Counted from the first letter of the stretch, positions 26,294 through 34,080 are shown. The stretch: DNA of 64,000 nucleotides from an uncultured delta proteobacterium (GCA_963842685.1 CAWJHT010000046.1:1440-65439), one strand, 5' to 3'. Program-made: numbers and translations. The notes: a model not told the origin generated them from the sequence alone.

Positions 26294-27245
26294 TCAAAGA
26301 GATTCCGGCGTAAAAGCCACCACGGCATCGATGGTCGTCTGATCGGCAAGGATCATCGCAAGGCGGTCCATGCCAAGGGCAATACCTGCGGAGGGAGGCA
26401 TCCGGGAAAGGGCGGCAAGAAAGCGTTCCGGCAGGGGATAGGGGAGGCCGTTTTTCAGACGTCGGTCACGGGAGGCCTCCTCGAATCGCCGTCGCTGCTC
26501 CACCGGATCGGTCAGCTCGGAAAAGGCATTGGCCAGTTCCAGACCGGCGATATAGAGTTCGAAACGTTCGGCGACCTCCCGGTCCTCTGCCTTCACCCGC
26601 GCCAGGGCGCCCAGTGCCGCGGGATATTCATACAGGAAAACGGGCTGTTCCCTGCCGAGATGGGGTTCGATCGCGCAGACCATGATCTCGTCGAAACGAT
26701 CCTGCTCAGAGCCTCTTCGACGCTGACCCCTGCATAACGGGCGAAGGCCTCCCGAACGGTGATCCTCTCCCAGGGAGGCGTCAAACAGATCCTCCGCTCC
26801 CTGCCAGGAAACAACGTCCGCCCAGGCCGAGCTCTCCGGCAATCCGGGAGATCAGGATCTCGCAGTCGTCCATCAGCGTCCGGTAATCGGTTTCCGCCCG
26901 ATACCATTCGAGCATGGTGAATTCCGGCAGGTGACGGGCGCCCCGCTCCCCGGCGCGAAAACATTTGCAGATCTGGAAGATTTTCGGATAACCCGCCGCC
27001 AGGAGTCTCTTCATGCAGAGCTCCGGGGAGGTCTGGAGGAACCATTCGCCCGAGGCGACGGCATCGATATGGGATTCCGGCGCCGGCGCCGGAATCCGCA
27101 GGGGCGTTTCGATTTCGAGAAAATCCTGATCCAGGAAGAACCGGCGGATCGCCCGGATCATCGCCGCCCGGAAGCTTCTCAGAGCATCCGCTTTACAGGC
27201 GGCTTCAGTCTCGCCACGTCCTCTCGATTGCGCATCGGCTTTCAC
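26294..27245 (-). CDS. epmA: EF-P--(R)-beta-lysine ligase EpmA (GenX/PoxA, truncated class II LysRS paralog), with about 3 frameshifts
   Basis: Motifs IRRFFLDQDFLEIETP, LQTSPELCMKRLLAAGYPKIFQICKCFRAGERGARHLPEFTMLEWY, ELANAFSELTDP and GIALGMDRL. The pieces are ORFs 26781..27245, 26593..27045 and 26294..26842. Confidence 0.8.
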
Positions 27246-27266
27246 TCCAAATCAATGACCAAGTCG

Positions 27267-27830
27267 TCATCCCTTGACCCGGGTCAGGTACTCTCCGCTG
27301 CGGGTATCGATCCGGATCTTTTCTCCCTCCTCGATGAAGGGGGGAACCTGGAGCTGATAACCCGTCTGGACGGTGACCGGTTTGGTGTTTCCCGAAACGG
27401 AATCCCCCTTGGCCCAGGGATCGGCCTTGGTCACCATCACATCGATGAAATTGGGCAGGCTGATCCCCAGCGGCCGGTCCTCGAAGAAGAGGATCTCCAC
27501 CTCGATGTTGTCCAGGAGAAAATTTTTCGCCTCGCCGACCTGATCCTCGGTGAGGAAGACCTGCTCGTAGCTCTGGTTGTCCATGAAGCAGTACTTCCCC
27601 TCTTCCTGATAGAGGTACTGCATCTTCTTCTCCTGCAGATCGGCCGCCTCAAAGATATCGACGGAACGGAACGTCCGCTCGAACTGGTTTCCATTGACCA
27701 TGTTCTTCAGCTTGCAGCGGTAGAGCGCCTGTCCTTTGCCCGGTTTGACAAAGTTGAATTCCGTCACGATATACGGATCGTTATCGATCTTGATCCGCAG
27801 TCCTTTTCTCAAATCGCTGGCTGTGTACAT
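27267..27830 (-). CDS. efp: Translation elongation factor P
   Basis: Intact 187 aa. The modification loop VKPGKGQA carries the conserved Lys. Confidence 0.95.
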   Translation of the reverse strand: MYTASDLRKGLRIKIDNDPYIVTEFNFVKPGKGQALYRCKLKNMVNGNQFERTFRSVDIFEAADLQEKKMQYLYQEEGKYCFMDNQSYEQVFLTEDQVGEAKNFLLDNIEVEILFFEDRPLGISLPNFIDVMVTKADPWAKGDSVSGNTKPVTVQTGYQLQVPPFIEEGEKIRIDTRSGEYLTRVKG

Positions 27831-27935
27831 ATTCTTCCCTTCTCCTTTTCGTCAAAAAACGCCTCCTAACAATCCCTTCCTGTCCCTGCGCCTCTCCGGG
27901 CGGAGGAATCTCCCTGCATATCCTCCGTACATTTT

Positions 27936-29006
27936 CTAATCCATCCGTTTTATCTTGTCAAAAGAATGTTGATCGCGACAGGCCTCTCTCTCGGGCAGAA
28001 GGGAAAAAGGCTGGAGGGGGATCTTACCCCTCCCGCCCGGGCAATCCAGCACGTAACGGGGGAGGCAGAGCCCGGAGATGTTGCGCCAGAGCCTCTCCAT
28101 GATCTCCATGCCGTCCGAAAGATCTCCGCCCGGAAATGATTCACACCGCGGACCGGATCGCACTGAAACAGGTAGTAGGGACTGACCGAGATCCGCTCCA
28201 GACCGTAGAGAAGATCCCGCATCGTCTCGTAGTCGTCGTTGACCCCCTTGAGCAGGACCGACTGATTGGAGACGGGGATCCCGGCCATCAGCAGCATCTC
28301 GCATGCCCGCGTGGATTCCGGTGTGATCTCTCTGGCATGATTGAACTGCGTGTTGAACCAGAGCGGCCGGTGCCGCTTCAGCATCGCGCAGAGCTCCGGC
28401 GTGATCCGCATCGGCAGGGTGACCGGCGCCCGGCTTCCGATGCGGAGGACCTCCACATGGGGAATCGCCCGGAGAGCCCCCAGAAACCAGTCGAGGAGGC
28501 TTTCGGAGAGGAGGAGAGGATCGCCTCCGGAGACGATCACCTCCCGCAGGGCCGGCGTCCGGGCCACATAATCCACCATCGTCTGCAGCCATTCCCGCGT
28601 CCCCGGGGATCTTTTTTTACCGCGCCACATCCGCTTGCGGTTGCAGTGCCGGCAGTAGACGGCGCAGACGCTCGTGACGATCGCCAGACAGCGATCGGGA
28701 TAGCGGTGGATCAGCCCCGGAACCGGCATCGCCCTCTCCTCATCGAGAGGATCGTCGGCGTCTCCCAAAGAGAGATCGAGCTCCCGGAGATCGGGAAAAC
28801 ACTGCCTGCGGAGGGGATCGCTTTCCTCCGCCGCATCCAGGAGCGACAGATAATAGGGGGTGATCGCCATGGGATAGGTTCTGACGACAGACCCGTACTG
28901 CCGGCGATGACAGGACAGGCTCGTTCATTATTGAGGCAAGCTGCCTGGGGGAGCGAACCCGATTCCGGAACTGCCATTTCCAGTCGCCCCACTGCGAAAC
29001 GGACAC
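27936..29006 (-). CDS. epmB: EF-P beta-lysylation protein EpmB (KamA-family lysine 2,3-aminomutase-like radical SAM), with about 2 frameshifts
   Basis: The N-terminus WKWQFRNRV is in ORF 28740..29006. The radical SAM cluster motif is CAVYCRHCNRKR. Then come GGDPLLL and SPYYLFQCDPVRG. The C-terminus is in the 27936..28592 frame (LPRYVLDCPGGRGKIP). Confidence 0.8.
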
Positions 29007-29485
29007 CCTCCTCCAGGGTTCCCTGCCGATCTTGTTGCCGCTTATGAAGCTCCCGCCACCGCGTCCGGTCTTTTCGGCAAGGAAGAACTCCGTTTTTTGT
29101 TGCGCCCCTTATCCAAGCATACCAGTGAGGGCTTGCGGGCTGCTCTCCCGTCTACATTTTTCAATCCGGATGGCCTCGTCAATGTCTTCAAAGCCCTAAG
29201 ATGAATTCTTCAAAGGGACGCTTTCTATCACAATCTCCGTCCCCTGCAAAGGAGAATGGACAAACCGCAAAGGAGGAAAATCCGTACCACTTATCTCAGA
29301 GCGTCCGCAAGAAATGATTTGCTTTGTCCTCGGGGATTTTATATCTTTAACTCCCTGGATGGGATAGTGGTCTTCCCGATTCACGCCTCATACCGGGGCC
29401 CGGTTCGGCCCATTCCGTCATTGTCCGGATAATCTTCCACGCACCCTTGCAAGGAGGGTTTAACCACAAGAAGGGAGATGGCCCA

Positions 29486-30633
29486 ATGAATGCATTATCG
29501 CAGGATGAATTAAAGACATTGATGGGAAAACATCAGGGCTTGTGCATTTCGATTTTCATGCCCACCTTCCGCACCGGCGCGGAAAGCCAGCAGAACCAGA
29601 TCCGGTTCAGGAATCTTCTGCGCAGCGCGGAGGAAAAACTGCTGGCCGCCGGTCTGCGTTCCCAGGAAATCAAAGAGCTTCTGGAACCGGCCCAGGCGCT
29701 GCCGGGCAATGTCCTATTCTGGCGGCGGCAGAGCGACGGTCTGGCGCTCTTTCTCTCCGCCGATCTGTTTCGCTATTTTTGTCTTCCCGAGGCATTTCAC
29801 GAGCTCATCGTCGTCGCCGACCATTTTCACATCAGACCCCTTCTGCCGGTCCTGAGCGGCGACAAACGGTTCTATATCCTGGCCCTCAGCCAGAAAGAGG
29901 TCCGGCTTCTGGAAGGGACGGGGCAGAACGTTCAGGAAATAGAACTGGAAGCGGTTCCCAAAAGCCTTGACGAGGCGTTGCAGTATGACGAGCTTGAAAA
30001 ACAGGTTCGTTTTCGCACCGGCTCCGTCAGCGGCGGAACCGGCATGGCGATGGTTTCCGGACACGGAGGGGTTGCCGACGACACGAAAGACAACCTCCTT
30101 AAGTATTTCCGTCTGATCGACCGGGGTCTCCACGACCTGCTCAAGGACGAACGCGCGCCCCTCGTCCTCGCCGGGGTGGAATATCTCTTTCCCATCTACC
30201 GTGAGGCCAACACCTTTCCCCACCTGATCGAGGAGGGAATTCCGGGAAATCCCAAGGGAACCAGCTCGGAATCTCTTTACCGCATGGCCTTGAAGATCGT
30301 CAGCCCCTTCTTTCAGAAGGCCGAAAACGACGCCATCGCCCAGTACCGGCAATCTTCGGGAACCGGCCTGACCTCCGCCGACATCCGGGAGATCGTCCCG
30401 GACGCCTCCACGGACGGGTCGGCATGCTTTTCATCGCCGCAGGGAGCCGGAATTGGGGAACATTCAACAGGGAAAGCGGCGCCGTCGAACTGCACCAGAA
30501 ACCGGAGGCCGACGACGAGGATCTGCTGGAGATCGCGGCGATCCAGACCTATCTCAACGGAGGATCGGTCTTCATCCTGCCCCCGGAAAAAATGCCGGAG
30601 CCAAAAGACCTGGTCGCCGTTTTCCGTTACTGA
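29486..30633 (+). CDS. Uncharacterised protein, probably a bacterial eRF1-fold (baeRF-like) family member, with one frameshift near 30400
   Basis: AAGGGAG lies upstream of the ATG at 29486. The sequence is LCISIFMPTFRTGAESQQNQIRFRNLLRSAEEKL...FWRRQSDGLALFLSADLFRYFCLPEAFHELIVVADHFHIRPLLP...FYILALSQKEVRLLEG, with the tail HGRVGMLFIAAGSRNWG...DLLEIAAIQTYLNGGSVFILPPEKMP in ORF 30424..30633. The pattern matches my recollection of baeRF families. It has not been checked by any search. Confidence 0.5.
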
Positions 30634-30643
30634 TCAAGGGTGT

Positions 30644-31673
30644 TCAGATTCCGTCTCCTCCAGCCGGGAACGGCTGATCCGGAGGCGTGACCGGTCTTTC
30701 CGTCTCTGCGTCACGGGGCATCCGCCCCTTGTAGATGTACCGGTCGAACAGCCGGTGATAGGGCGTCCAGTCCGACTCCTCGTCGCGGGCGTCGCGGATG
30801 TACTCCTGGAAGGCGTTCACCTTGGCGTCGAGGTCGTCCATGTAGTGGACGATCAGGGCCTCCAGGGTCTTGGGCCGCTTGGGCGAACCGTATTCGAGAA
30901 CACCGTGATGACTGAGGATCAGGTGGCGGAGTTCCATGGCCGTCTGTTCGGGAAAATCGGGAATCGTCGCGATCTTTGCATCGACCATCTCGACGCCCAT
31001 GACGATGTGACCGACCAGCCGTCCCGGATCGCTGTACTCCACGATCCGTTCATAGGAAAATTCGTAGATCTTCCCGATATCGTGGAGGATGCCGCCGGCG
31101 ATCAGGAGATCCCGGTTGATCCCTGCGTAATGGCCGGCCGCCTGATCGAGGAGTCGGACAACGGAAAGGGTGTGTTCCAGAAGACCGCCGATGTAGACAT
31201 GGTGAAATCCCTTGGCCGCCGGCGCCCTCCTGAAGAGTGCGGCAATCTTCTCATCCTTGAAAAATGCACTGCAGAAGTGCAGCCAGACAGGGGGTCTTGA
31301 CCTGCTCGACATAGCCGAGAATCCCGGCGAACATCTCCGCGTGATCCCCCCTCGCCACCGGAAAATAGTCGGCCAGTTCGACCTCCCCATCCTCCACCTT
31401 CTTCAGTTCGATGATCGAAAGCTGGATGGCGTTCTTGAAACTGAGCGCCCGCGCCTGGATGCGGATCAGATCGCCCTTTTTGAACGCCTTGTCCCAGGCC
31501 AGGGCGTTTTCCCAGATCTTCCCGTCCACCTCCCCCGTCCGATCCCTCAGGCGGAGATTCAGGTAGGGCGATCCCTTCTGGGAATAGGCGAGATTCTTCT
31601 CCGCCGCCAGAAAGACCTCGCTCACCTTGTCGCCGGTCTTGATATCCTTTACATAAATCGATTTTGATTTCAA
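30644..31673 (-). CDS. OB-fold plus HD-domain phosphohydrolase/3'-5' exoribonuclease (YhaM-like), with one frameshift near 31270
   Basis: The N-terminal OB fold is in ORF 31251..31673 (FLAAEKNLAYSQKGSPYLNLRLRDRTGEVDGKIW). The HD domain is in ORF 30644..31390 (HHVYIGGLLEHTLSV...GGILHDIGKIYE...LILSHHG). Confidence 0.7.
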
Positions 31674-31677
31674 TGCC

Positions 31678-33631
31678 CTACCCGCCCTTCGTCAAATAGA
31701 TGATCATTGATTCCTGCCGCTCCCGAAGGATCCGGTGCTCGCCCGCCCGCATGGTCAGCTTCGTCATGTCGAAATACTCCATGAGCGGGATGATGAATTT
31801 CCGTGTAAGCCCGGTCAATTCCCTGAAGCTCGCCGGCGTCGCCTTCCCCTCCCTGATCGAGAAACTTCCGGTATTCCTCACGGAGCCGCGCCAGGGCATC
31901 CCGGTGGAAGTTCAGATCCTCGCTGATCCGGATCAGTTCTCCCTCGCGGGTCATCACCTGGATCAGGCTCGCAATCTCTTTTTTCCGGTCGGGAAACCGC
32001 TCCAGAACCTCCTTCACCGTGGGCGGCGACAGACCGCCCTCCCGATAGACCCCGGCGATCGACTCCCGCAGATCCCCCATCTCCCCCTTCAATTGGACAT
32101 GATGCCCCGACAGGCGGACATGCTCCTTCTCGGCGATGAGCTCTCCCCTCTTTTCGAGCTCCCGGAGGGCCATGCTGAAGATCTTCTGTCCCGCCCCATC
32201 GCCCATTCCGAGCGTCGTCCGGAGTTCCTCCCGGGAGAGTCCCTCCTTCAGGGGAAACCGTTCGTGGTACCCCTTCAATTCCCCGATGATCCCCACCTGC
32301 AGGTCGGCATAGACCGGTCCGGACAGGACCCTCGTCTCTTCACGGTCGACAAGCATGGCACTCCGTGCAGAAAACATCCCCTCCAGGCGCCTGCGGAGTT
32401 CGGCCCGGCGGATACCCGTCCGAATCACAAGGCGGGGTTCCGTGATCCCGCCGATCCCGGCCCTCGCCATCACGACGGTCAACTTCTCGATCTCTCCTCC
32501 GCCGGAAAGAAGCCGGAATTCCTCCAGCACCTCCTCCGCAAATCGTTTGTGTTTCGCGGACAGAGGATCGAGGATCATCCCGCCCCCGATCGTCGTGACA
32601 GGGGAATAGCTCCGGACGACGAACCGGTCCCCGGCCACCACCGCCAGAGGGGCATCGAGCACCAGTTGGGCGTTGGCCTCTTCACCCGGTTCCAGTTCGT
32701 CCCGGTCGAGAAGGATCATCCGCGCCATGACTTCGCTTGTCCCCGTATGCAACCGGACAAGGGTCCGGTTCTTCAGCTTCCGCGCGGCGCCGGCAAGATG
32801 GCGGTAAAGGCAATCAAGGCGCTGCGACACAGCCAGGGCGCCTTTGCCGGCGAGAAGATACCCCCGCTCGATCACCGCCCGGTCAACCCCTTGGAGGTTG
32901 ACGGCCGTCCTCTGCCCCGCCTCGGCGGTATCGACAGGCTGGTTGTGGACCTGAATCCCCCTCACCCTGGCCCGGAGCCCGACCGGATAGATCTCCACCT
33001 CCTCACCGGTCGTCACACGTCCGGACGTCAGCGTTCCCGTGACGACGGTGCCGAATCCCTTCATCGTAAACACACGGTCGACGGGCAGACGGAAGAGCCC
33101 GACATCGGCCGCCTCTTCCACCTCGTCCGCCACCCGGGCGATGGTCTCGATGAGTTCGGGAAAACCCGCCCCCGTCAGGGAAGAAACCGGAACGACCGGC
33201 GCATCCTCCAGAAAGGTCCCCCGGAGAAACTCACGGACGTCCTCCCGGACGAGCGTCAGCCACTCCTCATCCACCATGTCGATCTTGGTGAGGGCAACGA
33301 AACCCTTTCGTATCCCGAGGAGGGTGCAGATCTGGAGGTGCTCCCGCGTCTGCGGCATCACCCCTTCATCGGCTGCGATCACCATCACAACAAGGTCGAT
33401 GCCGGCGGCGCCGGCCACCATGTTCCGGACAAACCGCTCGTGGCCCGGGACATCGACGACGCCCAGGACCCGACCGTCGGGGAGGGACAGAGAGGCGAAG
33501 CCGAGCTCGATGGTGATCCCCCGCTCTTTCTCTTCCTTGAGCCGGTCCGTGTCCACACCGGTAAGACGTTTGATCAGCGCCGTCTTGCCGTGATCCACGT
33601 GGCCGGCGGTACCCATCACGATGTGCTTCAT
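31678..33631 (-). CDS. selB: Selenocysteine-specific translation elongation factor SelB, with one frameshift near 31860
   Basis: GTPase motifs [16 protein letters not shown] and TKID. These are followed by domains II-III and winged-helix repeats. The C-terminus ...[20 protein letters not shown]... lies in ORF 31678..31899. Confidence 0.9.
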
Positions 33632-33690: not shown

Positions 33691-34080
33691 CTACAAAATG
33701 ATGTTGCTTGCTCCAGCGGTCGAGCCGCCCGGAACGATCAGCCGGGACTGCTCCTGCCTCTGCATTTCTTTGGCCTGTTCGACCAGGTGAGCCACGAATT
33801 CCTCCATGGCCGCGGGAAATTTTTCCATAGCCAGTTGAAGATTTTTGGCATCGATTGGAAACTGAACGGGCATGGGGCCTTGCTGGGTGTATATTTGCGA
33901 TTGCCCAACAAAAAGAATCGGACGGGTTTTATCCGGTTCTCCGTTCGGTTTAACCGGCGTCAGCTGACGGATGGAACCTATCGTAAGATCGCTGAACACC
34001 TCTTCCCGGTGAAGGTTTTGTTGGTTGAATTTGACTTTTTTCTCTTTTCCTTCTGAGTCTGCCATGCTGTCCTCCTGCAA
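33691..34080 (-). CDS. Small conserved-looking hypothetical protein; first gene of the selB operon
   Basis: Intact 129-aa ORF (alternative start at 34065). It shares the strand with selB, and its stop is 59 nt upstream of the selB start. I recognise no family. Confidence 0.5.
   Translation of the reverse strand: MQEDSMADSEGKEKKVKFNQQNLHREEVFSDLTIGSIRQLTPVKPNGEPDKTRPILFVGQSQIYTQQGPMPVQFPIDAKNLQLAMEKFPAAMEEFVAHLVEQAKEMQRQEQSRLIVPGGSTAGASNIIL

Follow-up and report, generated by a model that had tools for sequence, protein, structure and literature searches.

Proteins of the Balon family hold ribosomes in an inactive state under stress, as was reported in 2024 (PMC10901736). Cryo-EM structures on ribosomes, together with genetic and biochemical data, are available for Balon of Psychrobacter urativorans (AOC03_06830; PDB 8RD8, 8RDV, and 8RDW) and for Msmeg1130 and Rv2629 (Helena-Bueno et al., Nature 2024; PMC10901736). 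These three proteins have neither the NIKS nor the GGQ motif, and they share an extended loop in the N domain that touches the decoding center and an insertion in the C domain that binds EF-Tu (PMC10901736). Msmeg1130 and Rv2629 are very divergent members of the family, yet they still bind to the A site, and Balon itself was reported in the context of a stress operon (PMC10901736). Burroughs and Aravind predicted in 2019 that the baeRF-1 proteins without the Gln are non-catalytic inhibitors of the A site (PMC6514570).

Here, we describe a gene from a 64,000-nucleotide stretch of DNA (the window; GCA_963842685.1 CAWJHT010000046.1:1440-65439) assigned to an uncultured delta proteobacterium. The gene is a new and divergent member of the Balon/baeRF-1 hibernation factors, from a Syntrophales-like bacterium. 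The original prediction for this DNA had proposed an eRF1-fold, baeRF-like protein, and this proposal is upheld by matches to the Pfam families baeRF_family7 and baeRF_family3 and by Foldseek matches of an orthologue model to Balon, aRF1/eRF1, and Pelota. The accompanying statement that no member of these families had been characterized experimentally is out of date, since Balon, Msmeg1130, and Rv2629 have been characterized (PMC10901736).

Coding Sequence and Missing Base

The open reading frame at 29486-30633, previously estimated to encode about 380 residues, is real and encodes a protein of 382 amino acids (1149 nt) when one base is restored (Table 1). The Shine-Dalgarno sequence GAAGGGAG is found at 29470-29477, eight bases before the ATG. 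The first frame encodes the N domain (approximately residues 1-125) and the middle domain (approximately residues 126-292), and the second frame encodes the larger part of the Pelota-like C-terminal domain, with a β-hairpin at residues 324-336. At the break, the window reads CGCCTC-CACGGA, compared with CGCCTCGCACGGA in the orthologue on a 90%-identical contig (L002), and the intact homologues read ...REIVPDASHGRVGMLF... at the same site. A length of 382 amino acids is that of nearly all homologues among the 120 matches listed. The sequence motifs CISIFMPTFRTG, FWRRQSDGLALF, FYILALSQKEVRLLEG, and GRVGMLFI that had been quoted for the protein are present, but the segment given as F.VLALS reads FYILALS, with I rather than V.

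Table 1. Coordinates of the Features Described in This Work (Positions in the Window)
Feature	Position	Strand	Basis or remark
Promoter/operator-like block, GCAAGAAATGATTTGCTTTGTCC-N9-ATTTTATATCTT	29307..29347	+	Conserved across related loci
Predicted leader structure	29418..29489	+	RNAalifold consensus, 14 orthologous leaders
Balon-like CDS, whole	29486..30633	+	ATG at 29486, TGA stop at 30631-30633
Balon-like CDS, first frame	29486..30408	+	Codons 1-307 and two bases of codon 308
Middle-domain loop, residues 177-195, ...TGSVSGGTGMAMVSGHGGV...	30014..30070	+	Position of eRF1 GGQ loop/Balon loop
Missing-base site, third position of the Ser308 codon	30408..30409	+	Alignment to L002 and intact homologues
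Balon-like CDS, second frame	30409..30633	+	His309 to Tyr382 and TGA stop
YhaM-like OB+HD gene, convergent, split over two frames	30644..31673	-	L002 orthologue matches
selB, frameshifted near the 3' end	31670..33631	-	L002 orthologue: TIGR00475, 373.7 bits (cut-off 242)
epmA-efp-KamA/EpmB-like operon, divergent, head to head with the Balon-like gene	26294..29164	-	Context

The alignment of the window with L002 extends over 21 kb and contains 91 gap openings, mostly single-base indels inside coding sequence. Two or more frames are needed in the window for 14 of the 20 orthologous genes around the locus, with five for ftsI, three each for rsmH and epmA, and two each for ftsL, tolB, tolQ, selB, and the YhaM-like gene. 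The genes for ruvX and pal are likewise split relative to the same contig. No cell could bear so many broken essential genes, and the frameshift at 30408/30409 is therefore an assembly error and not gene decay.

The broken frame in the sequence as given is what would be seen if the frameshift had turned the gene into a true pseudogene, but the splitting of ftsI, ftsL, rsmH, tolB, tolQ, selB, and other neighbors cannot be biological. The 74 codons past the shift are, moreover, well conserved; a tblastn segment that extends across the frameshift site (residues 305-382) shares 96% identity with the corrected protein. The dN/dS values of the corrected gene against six orthologues were determined to be 0.08-0.19, and the gene is under purifying selection. 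We thus regard a pseudogene as very improbable. A programmed frameshift at 30408/30409 was rejected together with a pseudogene on the ground that similar indels split 14 of the 20 neighbors.

Pervasive single-base indels are observed over positions 19500-40600 of the window, and the same state probably extends over its whole length. The assembly behind the window is error-prone, and inferences that are based on its frameshifts are therefore unsafe. Any calls of a "frameshift", a "pseudogene", or "recoding" from this window are to be distrusted.

Assignment to the Balon Family

The protein matches the Pfam families baeRF_family7 (PF18849) and baeRF_family3 (PF18845) with E-values of 5.4e-46 and 1.5e-45, respectively, through models that span the middle domain only. 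The scores of 156-157 bits are far above the gathering thresholds of 27-31, and weaker matches were obtained to baeRF families 6, 8, and 11. Judged by these profiles, the assignment to the baeRF families is far beyond chance. The comparison with Pfam that had been proposed as a check on the original prediction was thus answered in its favor, and no family-level difference was found between the protein and baeRF_family3/baeRF_family7 (PMC6514570).

Among the NCBIfam models, NF052287, "AOC03_06830 family ribosome hibernation factor", gave the best match, with an E-value of 1.5e-44. Residues 9-382 of the protein align with positions 1-361 of the 361 positions in the model. The match scores 152.9 bits and does not reach the cut-off of 330 for equivalogs. 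The protein is a family-level relative of the Psychrobacter protein and not a close equivalog. A phmmer search of the PDB sequences gave an end-to-end match to Balon (8RD8_B, E 4.3e-12; residues 9-382 against 5-369), and alignment of the subfamily profile with Balon using hhalign gave a probability of 99.6% and an E-value of 5e-24 over 359 aligned columns. The sequence of Balon itself matches baeRF_family3 (E 4.7e-30), so this Pfam family is tied directly to a characterized protein. The identity to the characterized Balon is only 21-22%. The similarity in sequence to the mycobacterial homologues is marginal, both by phmmer against the PDB sequences (E 0.39 for Msmeg1130) and by the model NF052288 (E 0.073).

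Chain B of 8RD8 (Balon) is listed in the PDB sequence file as "Methyl-accepting chemotaxis protein", an inherited misannotation by which searches based on names could miss the match to 8RD8_B.

At E ≤ 0.001, the subfamily comprises 8,516 representatives of clusters formed at 50% identity, and intact homologues of 382 amino acids are abundant. The closest relatives among the matches listed are 70-93% identical and come from metagenome-assembled genomes named Syntrophus, Syntrophaceae, and Syntrophales; some of them already bear the annotation "baeRF3/baeRF7 domain-containing protein".

Predicted Structure and Sequence Motifs

The structure was predicted with AlphaFold (AF2) for P0003, an intact orthologue that is 92% identical to the protein from the window, using an alignment of 142 sequences. 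The model has a pLDDT of 91.9 and a pTM of 0.83, and the part with low confidence is the middle-domain loop region (block-mean pLDDT of 55-62 over residues 171-200). When this model was compared with the PDB using Foldseek, the first match was to Balon (8RD8_B, E 1.3e-23; 8RDW and 8RDV, ~1e-22). Msmeg1130 was found with an E-value of 2e-18 and TM-scores of 0.64-0.67, and Rv2629 with an E-value of 5.6e-12. The E-values were 3.6e-13 for aRF1 (4AF1) and 1e-12 to 1e-9 for many entries of eRF1, for which the TM-scores are only 0.24-0.43. Pelota/Dom34 was matched with E-values of 1e-7 to 1e-4. The eRF1/Pelota-like matches that the original prediction had expected from a search of this kind were thus found. 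The model confirms a three-domain fold like that of aeRF1, with an N domain, an RNase-H-like middle domain, and a Pelota-like C domain, and the nearest solved structures to the predicted fold are those of hibernation factors.

The NIKS motif for the recognition of stop codons and the GGQ motif of peptidyl hydrolases are both absent from the corrected 382-residue sequence. The loop at the position of GGQ reads SGHGGVADD and has no Gln; the consensus for the subfamily is FHGxGxxxDxxK, also with no conserved Gln. The length and sequence of this middle-domain loop vary across the subfamily, and in the alignments the loop exceeds that in Balon from P. urativorans by about 9 residues. The eRF1 fold and the Gly-rich HGG remnant kept in this loop could be taken to indicate a catalytically active, alternative release factor that hydrolyzes peptidyl-tRNA. 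We give this reading hardly any credence, given the missing GGQ, the lack of a conserved Gln, the variability of the loop, and the classification of such families as inactive by Burroughs and Aravind (PMC6514570).

In the C domain, the strands at residues 324-328 and 333-336 of the P0003 model form a β-hairpin that aligns with Balon without gaps. The hairpin at residues 324-336 in the model fits the two-strand insert of baeRF-1 (PMC6514570), and a contact with EF-Tu is predicted for it.

The N-domain loop that connects strand 1 with helix 1 is as long as that in Balon, and T-x-R is conserved. The sole His-Pro sequence of Balon, H27-P28, aligns in both the phmmer and hhalign alignments with Gly31-Ala/Val32 of the protein described here. 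We infer that H27-P28 is the "HP motif" of Balon at the decoding center; the location had to be deduced because no residue numbers for this motif are given in the Balon paper, its supplement, or the preprint. The HP motif is specific to Balon, and the other homologues are described as having "an extended loop" (supplement of PMC10901736). A subfamily with a conserved Gly in place of the His-Pro could help in comparing how divergent members of the family grip the decoding center.

These results establish the membership of the protein in the family, its fold, and its lack of catalytic and stop-codon motifs. With Balon it shares the three-domain aeRF1-like architecture, the end-to-end alignment, the match to baeRF_family3, the best structural match, the absence of NIKS and GGQ, and the gap-free region of the C-terminal two-strand hairpin. 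It differs from Balon in the low identity, the score below the equivalog cut-off, the Gly-Ala/Val in place of His27-Pro28, and the longer middle-domain loop. Balon comes from a psychrophilic gammaproteobacterium, and the protein described here comes from an anaerobic, Syntrophales-like lineage. The structural matches to Msmeg1130 and Rv2629 (PDB 8V9J, 8V9L, and 8V9K) are strong, in contrast to the marginal similarity in sequence, and the mycobacterial proteins have larger insertions in the C domain (PMC10901736). The protein resembles aRF1/eRF1 in fold and in the order of the domains but, unlike them, has neither NIKS nor GGQ.

Gene Neighborhood

The Balon-like gene is arranged tail to tail with the YhaM-like gene, whose stop codon is at 30644-30646. 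The 10-nt gap between the two genes and the position of selB beyond the YhaM-like gene are as originally described. The L002 orthologue of the YhaM-like protein matches NF010007 (YhaM) with an E-value of 1.2e-51, below the cut-off for that model, and the Pfam HD and OB families with E-values of 4.6e-17 and 2.6e-5, respectively.

A small ORF (33691-34080 (-) in the window, 14206-14580 in L002) directly precedes selB in the same orientation, with a length of 124 amino acids in the relatives. It has no match in Pfam or NCBIfam. Its conservation is higher than that of the adjoining genes, with 99% and 95% identity in L001 and L003, compared with 95% and 90% for SelB.

A functional link between the Balon-like gene and selB and the nuclease had been suggested, and recurrence of the linkage across lineages was set beforehand as the test. 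Ninety-two loci were collected and searched for the neighbors found in the window; exact look-up supplied two of the loci, genomes ten, and metagenomes, scanned with a 15-sequence alignment, 80. All loci with at least 60% identity in the Balon-like protein and enough flanking sequence have the order tolQ-epmA-efp-epmB, followed by the divergent Balon-like gene and the convergent yhaM-like-selB pair, and the gap between the Balon-like and yhaM-like genes ranges from 17 to 2,948 bp. Below 58% identity, the yhaM-like gene and selB were found at only 1 of 47 loci (L048), at distances of 3.2 and 4.9 kb. Neither SelB nor an HD nuclease family is among the 25 most frequent families in a Pfam census of these 47 distant loci. 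The adjacency is limited to relatives with at least 60% identity, has a variable spacer, and is nearly absent from the distant loci, and it is therefore an inherited gene order within one Syntrophales-like clade with no recurrent functional association. On the basis of the 92 loci, we rejected a functional link and regard the proximity to selB and the nuclease gene as local gene order shared within one clade. The original caution that the linkage might be coincidental proved to be well placed.

Seventeen related loci carry an inserted gene for a CDF cation-efflux protein between the Balon-like and yhaM-like genes (e.g., 1575-2546 in L031). It begins approximately 49 bp past the end of the Balon-like gene and has the same orientation. 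This gene is absent from the window.

The same neighborhood bears on two other proposals for the function. The first is that the protein is a rescue factor like Pelota/Dom34 that acts on ribosomes that are stalled or aberrant, such as those at sites of UGA recoding, while the YhaM-like 3'-5' exoribonuclease clears the mRNA. The fold is that of the superfamily to which Pelota belongs, Pelota/Dom34 is also non-catalytic, and the catalytic Gln is missing here as it is in Dom34 (PMC6514570). The gene is, in addition, only 10 nt from an RNase-like gene co-oriented with selB, and the EF-P operon for the relief of stalling is on the other flank. The genes are convergent, however, the spacer varies between 17 and 2948 bp among relatives, an inserted CDF transporter gene is present in 17 of the loci, and 46 of the 47 loci below 58% identity have neither selB nor the HD gene. 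By structure, the protein resembles Balon (1e-23) far more than it does Pelota (1e-7), the Balon family does not have the mRNA-channel loop of Pelota, and the characterized relatives make no contact with the mRNA channel (PMC10901736). A rescue factor of this type is thus unlikely, and quality control of aberrant translation, as first suggested for this gene, is a less likely role than stress-induced ribosome hibernation, which is the role of the characterized members.

The second proposal is that SelB, a paralogue of EF-Tu, is the GTPase partner instead of EF-Tu and that the protein competes at UGA or polices it, mirroring the eRF1-eRF3 and Pelota-Hbs1 pairs. All proteins of the aeRF1 type pair with a GTPase of the EF-Tu family (PMC10901736), and selB is about 1 kb away in the Syntrophales-like clade. 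The linkage is, however, loose and confined to this one clade, the subfamily is thousands strong and its sampled distant loci have no selB nearby, and there is no codon-reading motif resembling NIKS. We consider a SelB-dependent function to be exceedingly improbable.

Ribosome hibernation agrees with the context of the distant subfamily members, whose most frequent neighbors are Usp stress genes, as in the stress-operon context of Balon (PMC10901736). The Pfam census of 142 neighboring ORFs from the 47 distant loci gave counts of 6 for Usp, 5 for DciA, and 3 for trehalose phosphatase. At the locus in the window, the stress-gene neighborhood that is typical of the Balon family but does not define it (RaiA/HPF, Hsp20, and Usp) was not found; no genes for RaiA/HPF, Usp, or chaperones lie beside the Balon-like gene, and in the absence of an adjoining RaiA gene the locus differs from that of Balon. 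No HPF/RaiA gene or second baeRF copy was detected in the 64-kb window using approximate E. coli queries, which would reveal gross homology only.

A Usp-domain protein of 373 amino acids with a long coiled-coil tail is encoded directly beside the Balon-like gene in 9 distant loci (L075 and eight others, all below 58% identity). The two genes are on the same strand, with a median gap of 87 bp, and this arrangement suggests a recurrent stress module.

The head-to-head order of the Balon-like gene and epmA-efp-EpmB-like, the operon for EF-P and the enzymes of its β-lysylation (26294-29485; L001-L051), is kept down to approximately 54% identity, which is further than the adjacency to selB. Among the 47 loci below 58% identity, efp is nearby in four, with 53-55% identity in the Balon-like protein. 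The adjacency to epmA-efp could reflect shared regulation or simply stable synteny.

Upstream Region

The promoter/operator-like block is located approximately 140-180 nt upstream of the start codon and contains the inverted repeat GCAA-N8-TTGC. Its core, AA[AT][GA]ATTTGC[ACT]T, with the promoter-like flank was found in the window and in 16 of the 25 related loci searched, and the core occurs once in the window where 0 occurrences are expected. The block is kept in two loci (L016 and L026) from which the leader of ~120 nt is deleted. A scan of positions 28800-31000 with the sigma-70 consensus made no promoter call, the block at 29307..29347 included, and a terminator scan of the same region returned two terminator-like sites, no more than expected by chance. 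The block resembles a promoter with an overlapping GCAA-N8-TTGC operator and may act as one.

In the predicted structure of the leader, CGUCCGG..AUCUUCC pairs with the Shine-Dalgarno sequence GGGAGA and the AUG, and an inner hairpin is formed by CCCUU/AAGGG. Within the last 70 nt, the anti-Shine-Dalgarno sequence AUCUUCC would thus be paired with GGGAGA, and CGU with AUG. In the alignment of the leaders, 97.8% of the cells are paired, compared with 48-66% when the partners are slid. Compensatory changes were found in three pairs, with covariation in the inner hairpin, and this number was reached by 3 of 500 shuffles. The z-score for the single sequence is only -0.59. No Rfam family was matched at its gathering threshold anywhere in the window, nor in 29250-29520 when matches up to E ≤ 1 were admitted. 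Sequestration of the Shine-Dalgarno sequence and the AUG by the leader, as an element of translational control, is a lead of weak to moderate strength and not a finding.

These features can be combined into a broader proposal, in which the Balon gene of the Syntrophales and allied lineages would be a translation-stress switch, placed head to head with efp-epmA-epmB and equipped with a near-invariant promoter/operator and a leader that hides the ribosome-binding site. We know of no description of such control for Balon, and we rate the proposal as improbable. If it is true, the synthesis of a ribosome-parking factor would be controlled post-transcriptionally, with temperature, a metabolite, or a protein as the gate, and the synthesis of Balon would be coordinated with that of EF-P, which relieves stalled ribosomes.

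Proposed Function

The gene probably encodes a ribosome hibernation factor of the Balon family, a non-catalytic bacterial descendant of aeRF1. By homology with the characterized members, the protein would bind to the ribosome in partnership with EF-Tu and would have the corresponding physiological role. Under starvation or stress, it would enter the ribosomal A site without reading the mRNA, and the N domain would touch the decoding center. The middle domain would be placed beside the peptidyl-transferase center without hydrolysis of the peptidyl-tRNA, and the C domain would touch EF-Tu(GDP). The ribosomes would then stay idle and protected until conditions improve.

The question of the function of the baeRF proteins was largely answered in 2024, and the gene described here fits that answer. 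It adds to the Balon family a well-populated and well-conserved subfamily from the Syntrophales. The Syntrophales are slow-growing, energy-limited syntrophs, and ribosome hibernation is plausibly important for such organisms.
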